Shown here in pieces: positions 1 to 38,359 of a stretch of 64,000 nt of DNA. The stretch comes from Thermoproteota archaeon (lineage in GTDB: Archaea > Korarchaeota > Korarchaeia > Korarchaeales > JAOZGB01). The notes beneath the pieces were generated by a model. It worked only from the letters and a program-made list of their open reading frames with translations, made no database searches and was not told the origin of the DNA. Every line of letters begins with the position of its first letter. The first letter of the stretch is position 1. Location: assembly GCA_037917685.1 (NCBI GenBank), contig JAVCBU010000006.1:192001-256000 (forward strand), read 5' to 3'. Made by a program: the position numbers and the translations under genes.

Positions 1-1341
1 CCCACCTAATTCAACCCATACCTCTTTACTTTCGTCAAAGACCTCTATCTCAACAGACATCTCAGTGTAGGGGAAGTAAGCTGGTCTAAATCGGCATTTT
101 CTGATACCTAACTTGTTGTAAAACTCTTTTAGATACCCTAATAAATGTTTAAAGCTAACATCTCCAACTACTATACCATCCGTCTGGTAGAACTCGGCAA
201 GATTTTTCCAGGTTAGAGTCTCATTCCTAAAAACTCTTCCCACTGAGAAGTATTTAGCGGGAAGATTTCCATTCTTGATGTCGTCACGCAGCTTCGCGAG
301 AGTTCTTGCTGAAAGCGATGTTGTATGTGTTCTAAGCACACATTTTCTAGCCTCCTTCTCATCCCACCTGTAACCCCATCCGGTTGATCCAGTAGTCCAT
401 CCATCTTCATGAGTTTTCCTAACGGCATCTACAATTTCTTGGCTTGGAAGCCTTCCATAACGGGGGGTCTCTGCGTAGAATGTATCAGCTAGATCTCTAG
501 CCGGGTGATCTTGAGGCTGATATAGAGCATCGAAGACCCAAAAAGCAATGTCAAGAATAGGGCCTTTCATCTCTTTAAATCCCATCTCAAGCCAGATTCT
601 CCTTATATAGTCAATGACTTGTCTCATGAAATGCTTCTTACCAGGATAAATGGTGGGTGCCTTAACATGGATATCATATGGAGTTAAAACAACATCACGC
701 CATTTCCCGGACGCTATAAGTTCGGGAGTAAGTTTTGAAACCTCTAAAGAGATGCTAACCTTTGTAGCAACCTCTCTACCCTTTTCAGTGAGGCTTAAAA
801 TTTTCTTTTTTTCCTCTCGCAATCGTAAAATCTTTCTTTTAACAAGTTCGTCTATTGCCTGTTTGTTCTGCTTCGTTACAAGCACCGGGCCAGCTGCGGC
901 GCTTTTAATAATCTTTTCCTCAGGGAGTTCAACGCTAATTTCATTTAAACCCTTTTCGGTTAACCGGACAACGTTACCCTCTATCTTAACCCAGCCTCTT
1001 TTTCTAGCCCACCCCATGGCTATATCTAATCTTCCTATATTTTCCTTTAAGTCAGAGATACTCAATGGCCCCTCTTTTAGAATCCGTTGAAGTCTCCTCT
1101 CAGGTAGGCCGTCCCTGAGTGCATCACCGCCTTCCTTGGTGAGTTCAGCCACTATGCGGCTCTCCGTGTAAGTAGTAAGTAAGCCTTTTTCTGCTGCCCA
1201 TAGAGAGGCAACTTCAATTGCATCCTTTTTAACTCCAATATTTTGTGCTATTTCGCTAGTTGTAGAGGTGCCCAACTGTAAGAGCGCTTTAAGTATAAGC
1301 CTTTCTAATCTGTGCAGCCTAATCTCAGTATTATATCCCAA
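1..1341 (-). CDS. pheS: Phenylalanyl-tRNA synthetase alpha subunit (runs off the left edge; absent from the ORF track)
   Basis: Manual minus-strand translation from TTG 1341 gives PQDHPARDLADTFY, YFPYTEMS and WVELGG, the PheRS-alpha motifs. Confidence 0.93.
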   Translation of the reverse strand, partial: MGYNTEIRLHRLERLILKALLQLGTSTTSEIAQNIGVKKDAIEVASLWAAEKGLLTTYTESRIVAELTKEGGDALRDGLPERRLQRILKEGPLSISDLKENIGRLDIAMGWARKRGWVKIEGNVVRLTEKGLNEISVELPEEKIIKSAAAGPVLVTKQNKQAIDELVKRKILRLREEKKKILSLTEKGREVATKVSISLEVSKLTPELIASGKWRDVVLTPYDIHVKAPTIYPGKKHFMRQVIDYIRRIWLEMGFKEMKGPILDIAFWVFDALYQPQDHPARDLADTFYAETPRYGRLPSQEIVDAVRKTHEDGWTTGSTGWGYRWDEKEARKCVLRTHTTSLSARTLAKLRDDIKNGNLPAKYFSVGRVFRNETLTWKNLAEFYQTDGIVVGDVSFKHLLGYLKEFYNKLGIRKCRFRPAYFPYTEMSVEIEVFDESKEVWVELGG

Positions 1342-1461
1342 CTTTAAGTTATCACCACTCTCTCAACTGCTGGAACAGATATACTCCTTTCATATAATTT
1401 TAATTCGTTGCTAGGTGTTAAAGAGTTATTAGTATCTTTACCATAATAATGTAGAGGTTAC

Positions 1462-2505
1462 ATGCTTCAAGATGTTGTATCACGATATTTACCAAAGATA
1501 AACAGGGAGATAGAAAAATATCTAGATGATATAATTGGAAGACAGAGAGATGAGCTGGTAAAAAAGTACTACTCGGTGATGAAGGACTACATCTTGTCTG
1601 GAGGGAAAAGATGGAGACCCATTAGTTTTATAATGGCTTATAGGGGGGTTGGTGGACAGGAGGAGGAAGAAGCAATTAAAACAAGCATATCAATAGAGTT
1701 CCTTCATAACTCGTCCCTTGCCCAGGATGACATTATGGACAAAAGTCTTATGAGAAGAGGTAGGCCAGCGCTGCACGTGAGATACGCTAATGAGATTGGT
1801 GGAGGGAATAGAATCCTAGGTGAAGCTTTAGGAATTCTTGGTGGGGACAGCCTTTTGGAGCTTGGGCTTGAAGTTATAGTGTCGTCTAATTTTCAAATTG
1901 AAGCCAAGATCGATGCTGTTTCGATGTATCTTTACTATTATAGACGACTAATAGAGGGGCAGACACTTGATATGTCTTATCCTACGATCTCTCTTATGAA
2001 TGAAGAGCAAATCGTAAATATGATGAGACTTAAGACTTCTTCACTTTTCGTTTGCTCTCTACTAATGGGCGCAAGGCTAGGAGGTTGTACATCTAGTGTC
2101 CTCGACATTCTCAAAAAATATGGAGAGAATGTTGGTATAGCATTTCAAATAAGAGACGACATATTAGGTGTGTTTGGTAATCCCAAGGTAACAGGGAAAT
2201 CAGTTACAGATGATCTTAAGGAGGGAAAGAAAACCCTGCTTCTTTATAAGACTCTTCAGCTTGCTGATCCATCTGAAAAGAGATTTATTAAGAGTAGAAT
2301 CGGTTTAGGTGATATTTCTATCAATGATGTAAAGAGGATACGTGATATAATGATAAAATCCGGAGCATTAGACTACGTGGAGGCTGAAGCAGAGAGATAC
2401 GTGCAGAAAGGTATTAAGGTCTTAGACTCTGTTTCAGGGTTAACCGCAGAATTTGTAGACTTCCTTAAAGAGCTAGCATTGAAATCGGTTAAGAGAAAGC
2501 TTTAA
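1462..2505 (+). CDS. idsA: Geranylgeranyl diphosphate synthase (polyprenyl synthase family)
   Basis: GGKRWRP, QDDIMD..RRG, FQIRDDIL and GKKT motifs. Confidence 0.9.
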   Translation: MLQDVVSRYLPKINREIEKYLDDIIGRQRDELVKKYYSVMKDYILSGGKRWRPISFIMAYRGVGGQEEEEAIKTSISIEFLHNSSLAQDDIMDKSLMRRGRPALHVRYANEIGGGNRILGEALGILGGDSLLELGLEVIVSSNFQIEAKIDAVSMYLYYYRRLIEGQTLDMSYPTISLMNEEQIVNMMRLKTSSLFVCSLLMGARLGGCTSSVLDILKKYGENVGIAFQIRDDILGVFGNPKVTGKSVTDDLKEGKKTLLLYKTLQLADPSEKRFIKSRIGLGDISINDVKRIRDIMIKSGALDYVEAEAERYVQKGIKVLDSVSGLTAEFVDFLKELALKSVKRKL

Positions 2506-2530
2506 TAATAGCGAGATACCTTAAAATATT

Positions 2531-2639
2531 GGCGTCAGCCTAGTTTATCCTCCTCTGTTATGACCGGAGGGTAGAGAGGATAGCGTGGGCTGATCTATGA
2601 CCCTCTCGGATTAGTCGGGGGAGGTACAGGGCTGACGCC
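2531..2639 (+). ncRNA. Unassigned structured RNA or cis-regulatory leader upstream of dnaG
   Basis: GC-rich island closed by a GGCGTCAGCC/GGCTGACGCC terminal stem with two internal hairpins; TATA-like TTTAATA at 2501-2507. Confidence 0.55.
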
Positions 2640-2659
2640 CAAACATTGGAGGTTGATCG

Positions 2660-3811
2660 ATGATGAATTCTAAGAGGGATGAAACTACGAAGCCAACTGT
2701 GTTGAAGTATGAGTGTGTTTTTGATCTATTCGTTTCCGGGGTTGTTGAGAGGAGCGATGTTATAGGAGCCATATTTGGCCAGTTAGAAGGCCTGCTCGGC
2801 CCAGAATTAGAGCTTAGAGAACTCCAGAAGACCGGCAAGATCGGCAGAATCGAAGTTGACATTAAAAGAGCTAAGAATGGGGTTCAAGGTATCATTAGAT
2901 TTGAAAGTGGATTAAACAAGGCTGAGACAGCATTACTAGCTGCGGCATTTGAAACTGTTATTAAGATAGGACCATACGACGCTGAAGTAAAGTTGAAAGA
3001 CATGCGTGATTTGAGAGAGGAGAGGAGAAAATGGATTGTCCAGAGGGCTATGGATATCTTAAAGCAGTGGCAGGTCAAATCTGAAGTTAGCTTTCAAGAG
3101 ATGGTAAATAGACTTAATGAAATGCTTGCATCATCCGAAGTAACTTATTATGGTCCTGAAAGACTTGTGTGTGGGCCTGATCTCTTAAAGTCAGATGAGA
3201 TTATTATTGTCGAAGGACGAGCAGACGTACTTAACCTACTTAGGTACGGATGGAGAAACGCTATTGCAACAGGAGGGGCTAAGGTTCCTAAAAGTATAAT
3301 TGAGCTTTCGGAAAAGAAAGTAACCATCGCATTCGTAGATGGAGACAGGGGTGGAGAACTTCTACTCAATGCTCTTCTTGATAATGCTGATATCGATTAT
3401 GTAGCTCGGGCCCCTGAAAACAAAGGTGTGGAAGAGTTAACCGCCAAAGAGATTCTATCTAGTCTTAGAAACGCTGTTTCTGCTGACGAGTATAAAAGAA
3501 AGAGTACGGAACAACAGGTAAAAGCCCCATCTCAACAGGACAAGGTAAAACAAGTGTATAATAAAGTTAAGGGGACAGATAAGGTGTTAATTTTAAATAA
3601 GGATATGAAAGTTCTCCTAGAGACAACAATAAAAGATCTTCTTAGCAGTCTACAACAAGTCCAAGATGGATTTTACCTAATATATGACGGAAATATAACC
3701 CAAAGAGTTTTGGATCTAGCAAGTAACAAGGGTATTAAAACAATAGTTGCAAGAGAGATCCATGAAGTTGTCAGATATCCACCAGATGTTAGAATTGTAA
3801 CCATGGAGTGA
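2660..3811 (+). CDS. dnaG: Archaeal DnaG (TOPRIM protein, exosome-associated)
   Basis: DVIGAIFGQLEGLLG, IIVEGRADV and AFVDGDRGG motifs; SD GGAGGT at 2648-2653. Confidence 0.95.
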   Translation: MMNSKRDETTKPTVLKYECVFDLFVSGVVERSDVIGAIFGQLEGLLGPELELRELQKTGKIGRIEVDIKRAKNGVQGIIRFESGLNKAETALLAAAFETVIKIGPYDAEVKLKDMRDLREERRKWIVQRAMDILKQWQVKSEVSFQEMVNRLNEMLASSEVTYYGPERLVCGPDLLKSDEIIIVEGRADVLNLLRYGWRNAIATGGAKVPKSIIELSEKKVTIAFVDGDRGGELLLNALLDNADIDYVARAPENKGVEELTAKEILSSLRNAVSADEYKRKSTEQQVKAPSQQDKVKQVYNKVKGTDKVLILNKDMKVLLETTIKDLLSSLQQVQDGFYLIYDGNITQRVLDLASNKGIKTIVAREIHEVVRYPPDVRIVTME

Positions 3812-3814
3812 GAA

Positions 3815-4870
3815 TTGAAGATAATCGACACTGATGAAAAAACATTTGTAGAACTAATGGTCGATAATGATTTAGATCTCCTATTTGTTCCGCTTATAAT
3901 AAGTAAGGGAGATGTTATTAAAGCAAGAACAACTAGGCGAGTTAGAGGTAAGTCTCTTAAAGCTGAAAGCAGGAGAGTTTCTTTAAACATTAAGGTTGAA
4001 GTACACGAGACGGCATATAATCCAATTACAAGTGTAGCCAGGGTTAAAGGAAAGATAATCGAAGCTCCGGAGCGATATGGAATCCAGGGTAAATTTCACA
4101 CTATTAATCTCAAGGTTGGGGGCAGGTTTAAACTCTATAAGAGGATTAATGAGCTTGATCTAAAAATCCTGGAAATGCTGAAAGGTAGAGAGGAACATCC
4201 ATTGCTGGTTATTCTAATAGATTATGATGAAGCAAACATTTTTGAGCTAACCGGCTCGAGGATAAGGCTCCTGATGTCCCTGGAATCGAATCTTCCCGGT
4301 AAGAATCTTCCAGACCATAGGGCGGCTGCTTTGAGGCGATTTATAGATGATACATGTAGGATTATTCTAAAATACGCAGAGGGGAAATATTCCCACGTTA
4401 TAATAGGTGGTCCAGGGTTTATGAAAGACCATTTAGTTAAGGTGCTTTTATCTAAGAAAGTATTCCCCTCTGAAAAGATATCTGTGTTTCCAGCTTCAAG
4501 TGTAAATGTTTCAGGAGTTTATGAGATTATTAAGCGGGGTTTCCTCTTAAACGTTGAGAAACGGTTAAGTATTGTAGAGCAACAACGGCTTTTAGAGGAA
4601 TTCCTCATTGGGATCTCTAGAGAAAGCCCGCTCTTTACCTATGGCCTTGATGAGATTTTTAAAGCTAAAGATTATGGGGCTTTAGAATGGGTTATAATTA
4701 CAACCAAAAAGCTGAGTGAACTTGATTCGTCAAAATTAGAAGACTTTAAGGATATATGGCTTAGACTCAAAGGGAAACTATATATTGCTAACGTTGATAA
4801 TGAGATAGGAAAGATTATAACGTCTTTTGGGGGTGTTATAGCTAAACTCAGGTTTTCGCTATCTGACTAA
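3815..4870 (+). CDS. pelA: Pelota (aPelota) ribosome rescue factor
   Basis: eRF1-like domains; GKFHT, IIGGPGFMK and FGGVIAKLRF motifs. Confidence 0.9.
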   Translation: MKIIDTDEKTFVELMVDNDLDLLFVPLIISKGDVIKARTTRRVRGKSLKAESRRVSLNIKVEVHETAYNPITSVARVKGKIIEAPERYGIQGKFHTINLKVGGRFKLYKRINELDLKILEMLKGREEHPLLVILIDYDEANIFELTGSRIRLLMSLESNLPGKNLPDHRAAALRRFIDDTCRIILKYAEGKYSHVIIGGPGFMKDHLVKVLLSKKVFPSEKISVFPASSVNVSGVYEIIKRGFLLNVEKRLSIVEQQRLLEEFLIGISRESPLFTYGLDEIFKAKDYGALEWVIITTKKLSELDSSKLEDFKDIWLRLKGKLYIANVDNEIGKIITSFGGVIAKLRFSLSD

Positions 4871-5161
4871 TTGTAAAAAGATCCAGAGAACAAACCCGGA
4901 CATTATAAGCCTTCTACCAAGATATGCAAATAGATGCGTCCCGTACAGTACAAACCCGACGACAATTGACGTTACAGCTAAGACCTCACCTACTTCGATG
5001 GCTTTTTCCATCAGAATATCAAGGAAATTCCTTATCGCATCACTGAACTCCATTATCATATTCTCAATGTTATTTAAACCCCTAGGATCACAGAGTACGA
5101 TTGAAGTACCCTGAATTGTTAAAAAAATCATCAATGCGAATGCAATACTGATTCTTCTCAT
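4859..5161 (-). CDS. Small membrane protein; VirB2/TrbC-like (CedA1/TedC-like) pilin candidate
   Basis: Signal-like N-terminus, amphipathic helix and two hydrophobic segments linked by GRRLIxxG. Confidence 0.5.
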   Translation of the reverse strand: MRRISIAFALMIFLTIQGTSIVLCDPRGLNNIENMIMEFSDAIRNFLDILMEKAIEVGEVLAVTSIVVGFVLYGTHLFAYLGRRLIMSGFVLWIFLQLVR

Positions 5162-5215
5162 TTCAAACTACTTATGGCTGAATTCCAGAGTATTTAATTG
5201 ACTCGCATATTATAC

Positions 5216-5911
5216 TTAAGCCACTCTCTTCCTAAAATAGGGATTTTTCATTAGTTTTTTAACAGCAGATTCTATACTCTCATTTTTCGAAATCTCGTAC
5301 TTTATGAAAACCCCCGTCCTACCATGGAGACTTCTCTTAAGCAATACCCTTTCTCTTTCCCTTACAGTTTCAATGGAAACACCAGTAATTCTAGCTACAT
5401 AGCTCTCAATTCCAAAAACAGGCTTTTCAATATGTCCCCTCCTATTAGGTACTATAAGTAGGAGTTCTTTATTCATACCCGGAACTCTAAGCCCCTTTTT
5501 CAAACCAGGCAGGTCTAACATACCAGCTAACTTGTAAAATTCCTCTTCTCTCGGGCTTGTGCTACCCAGCGGAATGGTAACTGTGAGCAGTGGCTCGATA
5601 TAAAGATGTACCTTAGGAACACTCGTTGGCGTCGCTTGCACAATTAATCTTTCATACAGCCCACCAAAAGACTTTTCTAAGGTAAACTCGACCATAGAAG
5701 GCAAGCTGGAAAGAACTAAAATATCTATATCACTGGTTTCACTAACGTCTCCCCTTGAGATACTGCCGTAGATAAAACATTTAAAACCTGCACCATCAAG
5801 GGTTTCCATAACTTTAAGGGCTTTTCTCCTAAAATCCCCCAAGAGCTTCCAGCGAAATGTATCATAAATGACTTCTCTTTCCATACCAGTCTTTGAGGGT
5901 TTACTAGCCAT
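5216..5911 (-). CDS. Pol-beta superfamily nucleotidyltransferase
   Basis: YGSISRGD...SDIDI motif. Confidence 0.8.
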   Translation of the reverse strand: MASKPSKTGMEREVIYDTFRWKLLGDFRRKALKVMETLDGAGFKCFIYGSISRGDVSETSDIDILVLSSLPSMVEFTLEKSFGGLYERLIVQATPTSVPKVHLYIEPLLTVTIPLGSTSPREEEFYKLAGMLDLPGLKKGLRVPGMNKELLLIVPNRRGHIEKPVFGIESYVARITGVSIETVRERERVLLKRSLHGRTGVFIKYEISKNESIESAVKKLMKNPYFRKRVA

Positions 5912-5953
5912 AACCCTAATCCTAATATGTAACCCAACAGCTGAATAAAAGTA

Positions 5954-6643
5954 ATGAATGAAAAGTGTTCGAAGTGCGGAGCCCCCTCAGTATACGTAAA
6001 TAAACATTCTGGAATAAAACTATGCCTGACTCATCTTAGGCAATATGTGGAATATAAAGTGCGTAGAACAATAGGTAAATATAGGCAGCTAACAGAGACG
6101 GATCATTCGGTTATGTACATATGTAGCGGGCATGATATAGAAAAGCTGTTAACTCTAAACAAGATAGAGAAAGAATTTCCAGCTACAAAACTAGAAGCGA
6201 TTATAAATAGTCCCATAAACAGTTTAGATACGATATGTAGTGAACATAACATAAAACTTTCAAAGGTAAACATAGAGGTAAAGTCAATCATACATGGGGT
6301 AAAAAGCCTCTATAAAATTTCAAGAAGTTTCCACGCTACCAAACTATTGTTGCCTCTAACAGTAACAGACATATCTGATTTGATCTTATGGCATATCTTT
6401 CATCAAATAAATCCAGGGAAACTCCTAAATCTCGTTAACTCCCAGGGGATAGTTTCACCATTTATGGAAACAGATAAAAACATGTGGAAGACGTTATCAC
6501 GTAAGATTAAGAACAATGTGTGTTGCATTTTAAATCCACCTAAATGGTTTGTAGAGGCTACAAATACGTTTAGAAGCGCTTATTTGGGGGCTGACTTCAA
6601 CATTTTAAGAAGTGTTGAAAAACTTGCAGATGGTAAAAGTTAA
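5954..6643 (+). CDS. Degenerate TtuA/NcsA (Ctu1-like) paralog, probably non-catalytic
   Basis: N-terminal CxxC...CxxH finger and KVRRTIGKY retained; PP-loop, central CxxC and GHxxDD eroded. Confidence 0.6.
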   Translation: MNEKCSKCGAPSVYVNKHSGIKLCLTHLRQYVEYKVRRTIGKYRQLTETDHSVMYICSGHDIEKLLTLNKIEKEFPATKLEAIINSPINSLDTICSEHNIKLSKVNIEVKSIIHGVKSLYKISRSFHATKLLLPLTVTDISDLILWHIFHQINPGKLLNLVNSQGIVSPFMETDKNMWKTLSRKIKNNVCCILNPPKWFVEATNTFRSAYLGADFNILRSVEKLADGKS

Positions 6644-6676
6644 GAAAGTAGAGGAACCTATTCCAGACTGAAAGGA

Positions 6677-7006
6677 ATGGTTAAAGATAACCTAAATGTT
6701 CTTTGCACACCTACTTGTCCAAACTTCATATGTCTAAAAAGAGCGTTGAGGCCAGGAAGATCCGATGGCAAACCTTACTGCATATGGTTTAAAGACGTTT
6801 GCATGGGGGCAAATTGTAAATATGCAGCATGTAGGGTTCACGCTCTCCTTGCAGATAAAAGATGTAATCTTAAGATAGAACCGAAGAGACGACCCGTTAA
6901 GAGGAAAGAAGACAGGATAGATAAGGAAGTATCAAGATTAGAGGATAAAGCTAGAAAGCTCCTGAAAAGATATAAAGCAGGTTTGGAAGACGAGTTTATC
7001 GGCTAA
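6677..7006 (+). CDS. Cys-rich (8 Cys) putative metal-binding protein with a charged helical tail
   Basis: CTPTC..C..C..C..C..C..C pattern. Confidence 0.7.
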   Translation: MVKDNLNVLCTPTCPNFICLKRALRPGRSDGKPYCIWFKDVCMGANCKYAACRVHALLADKRCNLKIEPKRRPVKRKEDRIDKEVSRLEDKARKLLKRYKAGLEDEFIG

Positions 7007-7880
7007 TCCTTCTCTTAATGGTGTTCCATGGTCTAAGAGTAAATAATGCGACTGCCACGACCACAACAATCGGGGTAGCTACGTAAAATAGCGACTTTGA
7101 TCCACCTATAACCTTGAACTTAACAGAATATTCTCCAGCATGATCCGTAAAAACGTAGTACCACTCTATCATCCCATATGACTTTAGGCAATTGTTTGGG
7201 GTAACATCTATAGCGTAAAAAGTGTCCGGTGGGTACCATAGCTTCAAACTTCCTATAGTATTCGGAGGCAAAAGATCGATGATCGGTTTCAGGTCTACAA
7301 TAATAGAACTCCCTTCTTTTTTCTCAATCTTCGATAGTTCAGCTTCAATATTATATGTAACCTTAAGGACGGTTTTTGAGAGATAGCCGCTAAAACTCCC
7401 TCTAAGCTCTTTTACGTATACACTCCTAAATCTAAACTCTGCATAACCCAACACATATACTGAGCCATCAACATCCTTGACCTCTTTGTTGATGTTTGAA
7501 ACACTAGCACCTTCAGGCATATAGAGCAATCTCATAAGCTCGAAAAAGGCAACCTCGTCGAAACTGCTCAAAAATGCACGAATCTGGCCAGGTGAAAGAT
7601 TTCCCATGACCTCCGGCGTAACCCTAATCTCGTAAGTACCAGTCAGATAGTCTCCAGATAATGAAAGGTTGAAGCTTCCGTCATAAAAACATTTAGGTAA
7701 CAGACCTTTAGGCATATTCTTCTCAAAGAAAAACATTCCCACCTCTAACTTCATATCTACAGTGGCTGTTAGATCTCTATTAATGTAAATATTGATTACA
7801 GAATTCGCCTGTGCACTGCTATACAGCATAGAAGTTGCAAGGCCTACATAGAACGTGAAAAGTAGAATTTTGCTTATCAC
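6996..7880 (-). CDS. Secreted/cell-surface protein with C-terminal TM anchor
   Basis: N-terminal signal peptide; C-terminal hydrophobic helix followed by KRR. Confidence 0.7.
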   Translation of the reverse strand: MISKILLFTFYVGLATSMLYSSAQANSVINIYINRDLTATVDMKLEVGMFFFEKNMPKGLLPKCFYDGSFNLSLSGDYLTGTYEIRVTPEVMGNLSPGQIRAFLSSFDEVAFFELMRLLYMPEGASVSNINKEVKDVDGSVYVLGYAEFRFRSVYVKELRGSFSGYLSKTVLKVTYNIEAELSKIEKKEGSSIIVDLKPIIDLLPPNTIGSLKLWYPPDTFYAIDVTPNNCLKSYGMIEWYYVFTDHAGEYSVKFKVIGGSKSLFYVATPIVVVVAVALFTLRPWNTIKRRISR

Positions 7881-7994
7881 CTCATATCACCCTCACTTTT
7901 CCATCAGCACAAAGAAATATTAACATCAATATTCGCTATAAAGCTATCCCCTCTTTAACCTTCAACTAATAATTAGTGGCAATAAACTCTGAAG

Positions 7995-8016
7995 AGGTAG
8001 TATTAAAATACTACCT
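7995..8016. promoter_or_regulatory. Perfect 10-bp inverted repeat enclosing a TATA-like core (putative operator)
   Basis: AGGTAGTATT-AA-AATACTACCT. Confidence 0.5.
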
Positions 8017-23282: not shown

Positions 23283-23366
23283 GGGCCGGTAGTCTAGCGG
23301 TATGACACGTGGCATAAGGCTGCCCTTACGAGGCAGAGGTCGAGGGTTCGACTCCCTCCCGGCCCA
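23283..23366 (+). tRNA. tRNA-Val(TAC) with a 25/26 intron (23307-23318, 12 nt)
   Basis: GGGCCGG/CCGGCCC acceptor; CTGCC-CT-TAC-GA-GGCAG arm; BHB with TATG/CATA centre and ACA/AGG bulges. Confidence 0.92.
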
Positions 23367-23443: not shown

Positions 23444-23761
23444 GGCGGCTGGGCTTCCCCGAGGTGGATGCCCCTAGGCATGCCCGTAGGTAGGGGGACT
23501 CCTCAGCCTCGTTGCTCAGGAGCACCTAGCGTCCAGCTTACGGCTGCTCTCTTCCGAGCCTGGCCGGTTTCGCTGGCAAGGGGGTCGGGGTCCCTTCTCC
23601 AAGGGAACGCCCCCTCCGCCGGCCCCCTGAGGCGAAGCTTCATCAGATTCCACTCCAACCCCGTGACATGCTTCGGAGCACCGCCCTCGGGGATTACTGG
23701 CCCCGGCTTTAGCCTTCCGGAAGTAGGAGGCGGCTACCCTCCCAGCCCTACCCCAGCCGCC
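23444..23761 (-). ncRNA. ffs: Signal recognition particle (7S) RNA
   Basis: Helix 1 GGCGGCTGGG/CCCAGCCGCC; helix 8 GCCAGGCTCGGAAGAGAGCAGC; Alu loop-loop TAGCC/GGCTA; about 318 nt. Confidence 0.93.
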
Positions 23762-34106: not shown

Positions 34107-35082
34107 ACCAATTAATAGTAAGGGAAGAGGCAGCAACAAATCCTTCATACGGCTCTTACCCTGAGGAGCGAGCTATAAAAGACTTGCTAAACTCGTCTAT
34201 CATCGTACTCGACAAGCCTCGAGGCCCCTCGTCTCATACTGTTACAAAATGGGTTAGAAGTATCCTAGGAATCAAAAAGATAGGACACTGCGGGACTCTT
34301 GAGGGCAAATAGCCCGGAGAAATCCCAAAGTAAGCGGAGTTCTACCTCTTGTAATCGGTAAATCAACCAGAATAGCTAAGATTATCTCAGGCTTTGATAA
34401 AGAATACGTGGCCCTAATGTACCTTCATGGTGATGTGGGATATGAAAGATTAAATGAGGTAATAGCGAAGTTTCATGGTGACATATTCCAAAGACCTCCC
34501 GTAAGATCATCGGTGAAGAGAAAGTTACGGGTAAGAAAAATCCATAAGATAGATCTCCTTGAGTACGAAGATCGTTACGCCTTAATACGAGTAAAATGTC
34601 AAGCCGGAACCTACATTAGAAAACTGATACATGATATCGGTCAGGTGTTACTTGTTGGGGCAAGCATGTCTGAACTAAGAAGAATAGCCGCTGGGTCTTT
34701 CACTGAGAATGAAGCTGTAACTCTCCAACAATTACTTCAAGCTTATAATACCTGGCGTGAATCAGGAGACGAAGCCCCTCTTAGAAGAATATTTAGGCCC
34801 ATGGAATATGTACTGAGAAAGCTTCCAATGATAATTATTAAGGATACAGCTGTTGACGCAATCTGTCACGGGGCACCTCTCACTGTAAGAGGAATCTCTA
34901 AACTATCACCGAATATTCAGCCCAAAGATATAGTAGTTATAATGACCTTAAAGTCTGAAGCAGTGGCTATAGCTGAAGCATCTATGTCATCTGAGGAGAT
35001 GTTATCTTCATCCCGGGGTATAGCTGCGAAGCCTATGAGAGTTCTAATGGACAGAGGAGTTTATCCTCCTGCTTGGCGTTAA
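34103..35082 (+). CDS. cbf5: H/ACA pseudouridine synthase Cbf5, spliced: join(34103..34301,34322..35082)
   Basis: LDKPRGPSSH; GHCGTL|DPKVSGVL after intron removal; GTYIR; PUA domain; reading frames join exactly. Confidence 0.95.
34302..34321 (+). other. 20-nt BHB mRNA intron in the catalytic Asp codon of cbf5
   Basis: GGGA-CTCT-TG|A-GGGC-AAATA-GCCC-GGAG-AA|A-TCCC is a strict helix-bulge-helix-bulge-helix. Confidence 0.93.
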
Positions 35083-35115: not shown

Positions 35116-35225
35116 GCCGGGGTACCCTAGCCCGGTCAAGGGGCGGGCCTGGAGTTCATGCCCGCGAGCCCGTGGCCCCCTGAGCTTTGGGGACGGCCGC
35201 GTGGGTTCGAATCCCACCCCCGGCG
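35116..35225 (+). tRNA. tRNA-Ser(GGA) with two introns: 37/38 (35155-35166, 12 nt) and variable arm (35183-35194, 12 nt)
   Basis: GCCGGGG/CCCCGGC acceptor; CGGGC/GCCCG anticodon stem; variable arm becomes GGCCC-CCT-GGGCC after splicing. Confidence 0.88.
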
Positions 35226-38262: not shown

Positions 38263-38359
38263 GCGGAGGTAGCCAAGCCTGGTCAAAGGCGCGGGAATGA
38301 GGAGAAACTTGTAGATCCCGTCCCTGAGGGGTTCGTGGGTTCGAATCCCACCCTCCGCA
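38263..38359 (+). tRNA. tRNA-Leu(GAG) with a 37/38 intron (38303-38314, 12 nt)
   Basis: GCGGAGG/CCTCCGC acceptor; CGGGA/TCCCG anticodon stem; long variable arm; TATA TTTATAA at about 38232. Confidence 0.9.

Follow-up and report, generated by a model that had tools for sequence, protein, structure and literature searches.

What is the GC-rich island that lies directly upstream of dnaG in a Thermoproteota archaeon of the Korarchaeota (Korarchaeales), and what might it do there? Here, we present an analysis of positions 2531-2659 of a 64,000-nucleotide (nt) stretch of contig JAVCBU010000006.1 (assembly GCA_037917685.1, positions 192,001 to 256,000 of the forward strand), referred to as the window, in whose coordinates positions are given. 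An initial annotation, made from the sequence alone, had proposed that this region specifies an unassigned structured RNA of ~110 nt with mutually exclusive pairings, acting as a riboswitch-like or autoregulatory leader or as a new small RNA (sRNA). Based on the stability of the fold and its conservation in relatives, we consider it practically certain that a conserved structured RNA lies before dnaG. As to its function, the explanation that we favor, at just short of an even chance, is an H/ACA-like ribonucleoprotein (RNP) particle assembled on the dnaG leader.

A conserved structured RNA in front of dnaG

The initial annotation had noticed a GC-rich island in AT-rich flanks; the GC content is 0.57 at 2550-2649 compared with 0.34 to 0.44 in the flanks. 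The 109 nt at 2531-2639 have a minimum free energy (MFE) of −60.2 kcal/mol, while shuffled sequences have a mean of −38.3 kcal/mol (z-score −6.63), and none of 200 shuffled sequences was as stable. Comparison with relatives delimits a core of 86 to 89 nt (2545-2630 in the window), which alone folds with −38.7 kcal/mol. The element is present in a single copy in its own genome (1.81 Mb, 95% complete).

Relatives were collected by blastn in 41 related genomes and aligned using MAFFT, and a covariance model (CM), R1, was built on 19 sequences of genus g2, which belongs to a sister family (the E-values of R1 are rough, its calibration having been shortened). The blastn searches recovered a copy with 94% identity in the same genus and a core with ~80% identity in 19 of 21 genomes of one genus in the neighboring family, each followed by a dnaG-like reading frame. 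Among the 19 g2 sequences, 99.8% of the alignment cells are paired, with compensatory changes at 10 of 24 pairs, a result that none of 500 shuffles reached; when the pairing partner was shifted by 1 to 3 columns, at most two compensatory pairs were obtained. Across 38 sequences, in an alignment fitted to R1, 98.2% of the cells pair and 18 of 24 pairs are compensatory, again without any of 500 shuffles reaching these values. These compensatory changes include 8 of the 10 pairs of helix 1 (the lower stem; 98.6% of cells paired) and 8 of the 9 pairs of helix 2 (the upper stem). RNAalifold, applied to an unfitted MAFFT alignment of 13 representatives of seven genera, recovered all three helices (lower, upper, and apical), with compensatory changes at 13 of 22 pairs. 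In its central claim of a structured RNA before dnaG, the initial annotation was, therefore, borne out by both thermodynamic stability and covariation.

R1 matches 36 of the 38 genomes searched in the order and 38 of the 40 in the class, including all 23 that are at least 90% complete. There is one R1 locus per genome, and weak second matches lie on the opposite strand at the same place. None of three genomes of other Korarchaeota classes has a match; there, another open reading frame (ORF) abuts dnaG. Among 80 archaeal dnaG loci, only four matched, all from Korarchaeota, and none of the other 76 did. A z-score scan upstream of the same loci gave nothing comparable and mostly terminator-like hairpins. 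In two Methanosarcinales dnaG loci (L123 and L132), a well-folding conserved stretch lies ~90 nt upstream (z-score ~−4) and is not matched by R1; it may be a separate leader structure.

When the whole window was searched against Rfam 15 at the gathering score, nothing matched at the element, the matches being to a signal recognition particle (SRP) RNA and three tRNAs elsewhere; four homologous loci likewise had no match at the gathering score. A permissive scan of 2450-2720 (E ≤ 10) gave five matches of only 9 to 17 bits compared with gathering scores of 40 to 107. Literature searches that covered Korarchaeum found no report of guide or kink-turn RNAs from Korarchaeota. We conclude that the element probably represents a new RNA family, which is without a match in Rfam and confined, as far as searched, to one Korarchaeota class.

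Other assignments were considered and rejected. A tRNA with introns is not supported, as ARAGORN predicts no tRNA in 1-8000 and the Rfam tRNA model has no match at the locus. A remnant of RNase P RNA, considered for the GAGGAAAG stretch, was dropped in view of a full-length RF00373 match (144 bits) elsewhere in this genome, at G000:C1:431435-431693; RF02357 had no match, but neither did the control for that search. A repeat or mobile element was rejected on account of the single copy in the genome. Hammerhead, selenocysteine insertion sequence (SECIS)-like, sarcin-ricin-like, and C/D-box readings were set aside because the order or spacing of motifs did not fit, as judged by eye.

The fold is a rod with the following parts.

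2531-2541, + strand: outer stem, 5′ strand; pairs with 2629-2639 in the MFE structure; genus-specific extension
2549-2557, + strand: lower stem, 5′ strand, CCTCCTCTG; pairs with 2616-2624 in the CM alignment
2558-2563, + strand: internal loop, 5′ strand, TTATGA; final GA invariant in the class, AUGA in most genera
2564-2571, + strand: upper stem, 5′ strand; pairs with 2601-2609; covariation
2572-2600, + strand: apical module of 29 nt; near-invariant sequence
2601-2609, + strand: upper stem, 3′ strand, with C2607 bulged; covariation
2610-2615, + strand: internal loop, 3′ strand, ATTAGT; class consensus AYUAGU
2616-2624, + strand: lower stem, 3′ strand, CGGGGGAGG; CM alignment and covariation
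2626-2628, + strand: ACA trinucleotide, one nt past the lower stem
2629-2639, + strand: outer stem, 3′ strand; MFE structure; genus-specific

Across the class, the lower stem has 9 to 10 base pairs (bp) and the upper stem 7 to 9 bp, and the internal loop between them has 6 to 10 nt on the 5′ side and 5 to 6 nt on the 3′ side (8 and 6 nt, CYNNAUGA and AYUAGU, in the g2-based MAFFT alignment). The ACA trinucleotide is present in 34 of 38 aligned sequences; the other four have UCA and all come from among the five genomes of genus g4.

This rod differs in its interior from the fold that had been drawn from the single sequence, although the strings on which that drawing relied lie where they had been placed (GGCGTCAGCC at 2531-2540, GGCTGACGCC at 2630-2639, CCTCC at 2549-2553, GGAGG at 2648-2652, TCAGCCTA at 2535-2542, and TGGGCTGA at 2586-2593). 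The proposed closing stem, 2531-2540 with 2630-2639, is part of the MFE structure and is present in both genomes of the genus (G000, the genome analyzed here, and G001), in which two one-sided changes keep the pairing; it is not conserved beyond the genus and has no equivalent in the 19 g2 genomes of the sister family. The two inner hairpins, A and B, fared less well: enforcing them gives −48.5 kcal/mol compared with −53.3 kcal/mol for the enforced comparative rod, of which the unconstrained MFE structure is a variant. For the analogue of hairpin B, 72% of cells pair across the 38 sequences; 289 of 500 shuffles reach that value, and the signal reflects C-rich strands facing G-rich strands. The 5′ segment that was thought to switch between two partners belongs to the outer stem, which is seen only in the two genomes of the genus; its second partner exists only because GGGCTGA occurs twice, at 2587-2593 and 2629-2635. 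Finally, CCTCC, proposed to be complementary to the Shine-Dalgarno (SD) sequence of dnaG, is here the 5′ strand of the lower stem; the sister family has CCGCCCGCCA instead, which is not complementary to the SD sequence, and other lineages vary. There is, therefore, no support for a conserved switch or for a mechanism that masks the SD sequence.

The apical module and the dnaG locus

With kink-turns defined as in PMC5499556 and PMC5061560, the apical module reads as two kink-turns that share a 2-bp helix and are capped by a mini-hairpin.

2572-2573 (UA) facing 2599-2600 (GA), with a 3-nt bulge at 2596-2598, + strand: kink-turn A (proximal); sequence consensus
2574-2575 with 2594-2595, + strand: shared 2-bp helix
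2576-2578 (GAG bulge), 2579-2580 (GA), and 2592-2593 (GA), + strand: kink-turn B (distal); sequence consensus
2582-2591, + strand: mini-hairpin AGC-GUGG-GCU

Each apical strand follows the pattern GA-NN-NNN-GA across the class, with minor variants. The shared helix consists of an invariant G-C pair and an R-Y pair (pair 36-55), which is A-U in 16 sequences, G-C in 15, G-U in 5, and unpaired in none. Kink-turn B has the GAG bulge, G·A and A·G pairs, and a 3-bp helix capped by GUGG, the first pair of which (pair 43-52) is A-U in 23 sequences and G-C in 11; it is canonical in 36 of 38 sequences, and the two sequences of the second order have U·U at the second position. In kink-turn A, the shared helix would serve as the canonical (C) helix, the 3-nt bulge (NRU) always ends in U, and the invariant G·A pair is stacked on the upper stem; the second pair is A·G in 12 of 38 sequences, A·U in 24 (including this window), and A·A in 2. 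At least one kink-turn with canonical G·A and A·G pairs is present in all 38 sequences. RNAalifold proposes an alternative, in which the two G's past the GAG bulge pair with YC; however, this pairing leaves the A-U/G-C covariation of the R-Y pair unexplained, and we have kept the kink-turn reading for this reason. Given this consensus, we think it likely that L7Ae binds one or both kink-turns.

The module resembles the double kink-turn in helix P12 of euryarchaeal RNase P RNA (PMC5499556), which binds two L7Ae and likewise has two overlapping kink-turns, a joining helix of 2 to 3 bp, and tolerance for a nonstandard 2b·2n pair in one kink-turn. In P12, however, the noncanonical (NC) helix of the first kink-turn doubles as the C helix of the second, whereas here one C helix would be common to both in a pseudo-symmetric arrangement. 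The host RNA also differs, the RNase P RNA of this genome lying elsewhere.

The RNA and the genes that follow it are arranged as follows.

2501-2509, + strand: TATA-like element TTTAATAAT; candidate promoter of the RNA-dnaG unit, based on the sequence and relatives
2521-2530, + strand: second TATA-like candidate, TTAAAATATT, based on the sequence
2648-2652, + strand: SD sequence GGAGG of dnaG; an equivalent SD lies 3′ of the RNA in relatives
2660-3811, + strand: dnaG-like gene (Toprim domain), 383 amino acids; its start codon is 31 nt past the ACA
3815-4870, + strand: eRF1-family (pelota-like) ORF with eRF1 domains 1 to 3; 3-nt gap after dnaG

In each of the 15 loci checked, which represent seven genera, the RNA is closely followed by a dnaG orthologue (tblastn, 43 to 49% identity). 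This adjacency is kept where the upstream neighbor differs, i.e., in genus g2 and in family f3; in g2, the upstream gene is divergent and the spacer is ~390 nt long. In this genome, the upstream gene is a polyprenyl synthetase ORF (1462-2505), and the RNA element begins 26 nt past its stop codon. TTTAATA at 2501-2507 overlaps the TAA of this stop codon (2503-2505); a TATA-like box lies ~20 to 40 nt upstream of the RNA in all relatives viewed and overlaps the polyprenyl synthetase stop codon in several genera in addition to this one. By analogy with those genera, a transcription start site (TSS) near 2531, as initially suggested, would fit the TATA-like element at 2501-2509. As read by eye from the flanks, the start codon follows the ACA by ~21 to 31 nt in four lineages (including this genome), ~40 to 50 nt in three lineages, and ~120 nt in genus g4, and the SD sequence starts ~10 to 20 nt past the ACA in four lineages. 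A T-run 3′ of the RNA occurs in one genus only. Because most lineages leave dnaG no room for a promoter of its own, we infer that their dnaG transcripts begin with this RNA. Because the gap between dnaG and the pelota-like ORF is only 3 nt, these two genes are probably co-transcribed as one operon; an exosome-associated protein and a ribosome-rescue factor, thus, appear to share an operon.

Two flanking stretches merit mention on their own account. In genus g2 (L026-L046), the stretch GAAGAGATTATATTTGCGGCAAGTGTCGTAT, ~35 nt upstream of the RNA, is almost invariant, beyond what the B recognition element (BRE) and the TATA box need; the part that runs from the TATA box to the predicted start may be a binding site for a factor or may already be transcribed. 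In genus g4, the ~120-nt spacer between the RNA and dnaG (L047, 1589-1710, oriented) contains TGATGA and might harbor another small RNA or an additional promoter.

Candidate functions of the RNA

According to the explanation that we tentatively favor, an H/ACA-like RNP particle of L7Ae and Cbf5-Nop10 would assemble on the dnaG leader and might be released as an orphan or non-guide sRNA. Transcription from a TATA box of its own would make the RNA the first 90 to 110 nt of the dnaG(-pelota-like) message. One or both kink-turns would be occupied by L7Ae, Cbf5-Nop10 would probably also be bound to the H/ACA-like scaffold, and the conserved loop strands (..AUGA and AYUAGU) would form its exposed active face, whether they serve as a pocket for pseudouridylation or as a contact site without a guide role. 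The dnaG mRNA would be born carrying the particle, and a free sRNA would have to be excised from the leader.

We compared the RNA with H/ACA guide RNAs using rules as given in PMC2377435, PMC7991803, and PMC11077068. The RNAMOT hairpin descriptor, as described in PMC2377435, calls for at least 7 bp in the lower helix (H1), 5 to 11 nt in each strand of the internal loop, and at least 5 bp in the upper helix (H2); the RNA has an H1 of 9 to 10 bp, a loop of 6 to 10 and 5 to 6 nt, and an H2 of 7 to 9 bp, and the kink-turn or kink-loop that is required in the upper hairpin is represented, by sequence consensus, by a kink-turn. The top of the loop lies 15 to 16 nt from the ACA in the order (17 to 19 nt in family f3 in the short-H2 reading), at the edge of the allowed range, the target U being 14 to 15 nt from the ANA in archaea and 14 to 16 nt in a general statement in PMC11077068. 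With archaeal single-hairpin H/ACA sRNAs (Pyrococcus Pab/Pf; Sulfolobus sR115 and sR435), the RNA shares a lower stem of ~9 to 10 bp followed, in most sequences, by ACA, together with a sizeable internal loop and an upper stem that ends in a kink-turn with its G·A pairs facing the loop. As for these sRNAs, the genes for Cbf5, Nop10, and L7Ae are present in the genome: a Cbf5/TruB_N gene lies in the same window (34324-34617), Nop10 is found with 46.9 bits, and there are two L7Ae-family genes. Archaeal guide sRNAs that are co-transcribed at the 5′ ends of ORFs are documented, as described in PMC6009581.

Several observations speak against an H/ACA assignment. In functional archaeal H/ACA RNAs, the kink-turn is placed 5 to 6 bp above the pocket (as stated in PMC2377435 and PMC7991803), and a height of 7 bp was nonfunctional in Pyrococcus (according to PMC2377435). 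Here, the height is 7 to 9 bp: g2 has 9 bp; g1, g4, and g5 have 8 bp and a bulged nt (as does this window); and g3 and g6 have 7 bp and a single non-Watson-Crick pair. In family f3, it is possibly 4 to 5 bp, then with a larger loop. The first four nt of the 5′ loop strand vary freely. Four of the five g4 genomes have UCA, which is not an ANA box, and in the genus of this genome the ACA would sit within an internal loop closed by the outer stem rather than in a free 3′ tail. On the protein side, all matches to Gar1 are below the Pfam cut-off (Gar1 was likewise not detected in a Sulfolobus control genome), and Nop10 was not detected in 14 of 40 genomes, mostly carriers of the RNA and including all four of genus g5, although this protein is small and the search may miss it.

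Neither were targets found. Target scans were bipartite and used the loop strands of each genome, with a site defined as at least four contiguous pairs on both sides of an unpaired UN. No bipartite target was found in 23S rRNA (five genomes), 16S rRNA (two complete and two partial), or the 41 tRNAs predicted by ARAGORN in the own genome. Genome-wide matches were at background, and the eleven that were inspected are all in open frames, eight of which exceed 190 codons. Three leads in 23S rRNA, at ...GAACUAAGUACCGUGAGG, around helix 69/70, and at GCCGGUUAAUAUUCCGG, were dropped because of mismatches next to the target U, lack of covariation with the guide, or a chance-level score. The 23S hairpin GCCGG-UUAAUAUU-CCGGC is a weak target lead within chance expectation. 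A strict H/ACA descriptor run on the whole genome returned four rows at two random-looking loci; it misses this RNA (2n = U) and is, therefore, uninformative on others.

Because the kink-turn height does not fit, the ACA is sometimes UCA, and no target was found, we describe the element as H/ACA-like rather than as a canonical H/ACA guide. It also departs from archaeal H/ACA sRNAs in its longer upper helix, in the second kink-turn and invariant mini-hairpin above the first kink-turn, in being embedded as an mRNA leader, and, in this genus, in the extra helix that encloses the ACA. A noncanonical member is plausible because atypical Sulfolobus H/ACA RNAs exist, as described in PMC11077068. In the account given there, sR666 of Sulfolobus islandicus, a hairpin that has a kink-turn but lacks guide strands, associates with Cbf5 and is bound in vitro by both L7Ae and Cbf5-Nop10; it resembles this RNA in being a kink-turn hairpin without evident guide function. 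However, sR666, compared here by its description, is reported to have no single-stranded regions, whereas this RNA has the conserved loop of 6 to 10 and 5 to 6 nt.

The main alternative is that the RNA is a cis-acting leader, which we regard as possible, if on the unlikely side. In this case, the kink-turn in the 5′ untranslated region (5′ UTR) would bind free L7Ae, and the bound rod upstream of the SD sequence would lower the translation of dnaG (and the pelota-like gene) or change mRNA stability; RNA-surveillance capacity would thereby be tied to free L7Ae, and the H/ACA-like look would be incidental or vestigial. The element is physically a 5′ leader, and its constant place before dnaG despite changed upstream neighbors, the nearby SD sequence in four lineages, and the canonical kink-turn in every sequence are all consistent with such a function. 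As described in PMC5539422, L7Ae represses its own and other mRNAs via kink-turns in 5′ UTRs, and the 5′ UTR of the Sulfolobus l7ae mRNA (PMC5539422; PMC6298567) is likewise a kink-turn leader upstream of an SD-led archaeal gene. However, l7ae-type leaders are short, and a leader regulated by L7Ae is said to be necessarily unfolded without the protein (PMC6298567); this RNA, by contrast, is a rod of 86 to 109 nt that is very stable alone, and it has extra conserved parts and a start codon at variable distance. Moreover, the main text of PMC5539422, which reports RNA immunoprecipitation sequencing (RIP-seq) of L7Ae, does not mention dnaG. A plain L7Ae operator would need neither a lower stem of constant length nor an ACA nor an invariant loop 8 to 9 bp from the kink-turn. 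Because these parts are hard to explain for a mere L7Ae operator, we prefer the H/ACA-like particle over the cis-acting leader, even though the deviating geometry and the missing target weaken the former.

It is quite improbable that the leader senses another input, with the loops as the binding site of a small ligand in a riboswitch or of DnaG or another protein encoded nearby. Such a function would agree with conserved unpaired nucleotides framed by covarying helices, with the fixed place before one gene across the class, and with a proposed guide pocket for which no target is detectable. However, none of the riboswitch classes in Rfam matches, neither an alternative fold nor an expression platform is conserved (the alternative hairpin being at chance level), no terminator or SD-sequestering helix is present outside this genus, and the kink-turn consensus explains the apical sequence well; the riboswitch part of the initial proposal, thus, finds no support. 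Its other two suggestions, an autoregulatory leader and a new sRNA, are among the explanations considered here. That the element is not a functional plus-strand RNA, but rather a palindrome at the DNA level or, for the upstream polyprenyl synthetase gene, a terminator or other 3′ structure, is highly improbable, because its closeness to the upstream stop codon in this genome and the good fold of the minus strand (z-score −5.3) are outweighed by its staying with dnaG where the upstream gene differs (genus g2 and family f3), by G-U pairs and a model asymmetry that favor the plus strand (61 to 115 bits compared with 25 to 32 bits on the minus strand), by the absence of a 3′ T-run in most lineages, and by its single copy. 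A small remainder of the probability, we estimate, lies outside these explanations.

The H/ACA-like particle and an action in cis may also be combined. We speculate, as an unlikely possibility, that the RNA represents a new kind of archaeal leader, in which a full H/ACA-derived particle assembles co-transcriptionally on the 5′ end of the dnaG-pelota transcript and acts in cis rather than as a guide in trans. Two L7Ae would sit on the pseudo-symmetric double kink-turn and Cbf5-Nop10 on the lower stem and ACA. If so, the level of free RNP protein could set the stability or translation of mRNA for the exosome cap protein and the ribosome-rescue factor; alternatively, release of the particle could need the exosome itself, creating a feedback loop. 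In that case, the double kink-turn with its shared C helix would also be a module new to RNA architecture.

Two traits of this RNA are unusual, namely, the double kink-turn in which a C helix would be shared and the constant place of the RNA as a leader before dnaG. With this element, a deep archaeal lineage that encodes H/ACA proteins would gain a well-supported RNA family. The RNA breaks the 5- to 6-bp rule by which L7Ae is positioned beside Nop10 in the H/ACA particles known so far, has a second kink-turn in an arrangement that is not described in the RNase P double kink-turn paper (PMC5499556), and offers a natural test case for the flexibility of H/ACA assembly. Its strict linkage to dnaG makes co-regulation of RNA-modification RNPs and RNA-decay/surveillance genes in archaea testable.

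Other RNA features of the window and related genomes

The window contains an SRP RNA at 23447-23758 on the minus strand. Its three tRNA matches, at 23283-23366, 35116-35225, and 38263-38359, are 84, 110, and 97 nt long compared with the 71 positions of the model and probably bear introns. A scan of GC islands for other small RNAs gave 200 candidates and was too unspecific at a GC content of 44.8%.

Some rRNA genes in the genomes analyzed also have unusual features. The 16S gene of this genome, at a contig start outside the window (G000:C6:27-1088), matches in four pieces with gaps, which may reflect an incomplete assembly or insertions. In L064 (G004:C1:1328189-1331736), from a relative with a complete genome, the 23S match is ~500 nt longer than in four other genomes; the sequence departs right after ...GACTCTCTTAA near helix 69/70, and the extra stretch looks like an rRNA intron. 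In this genome, the 23S gene (C1:431739-434800) and the RNase P RNA gene occupy the same strand; the latter lies 46 nt downstream and may share the rRNA transcript.

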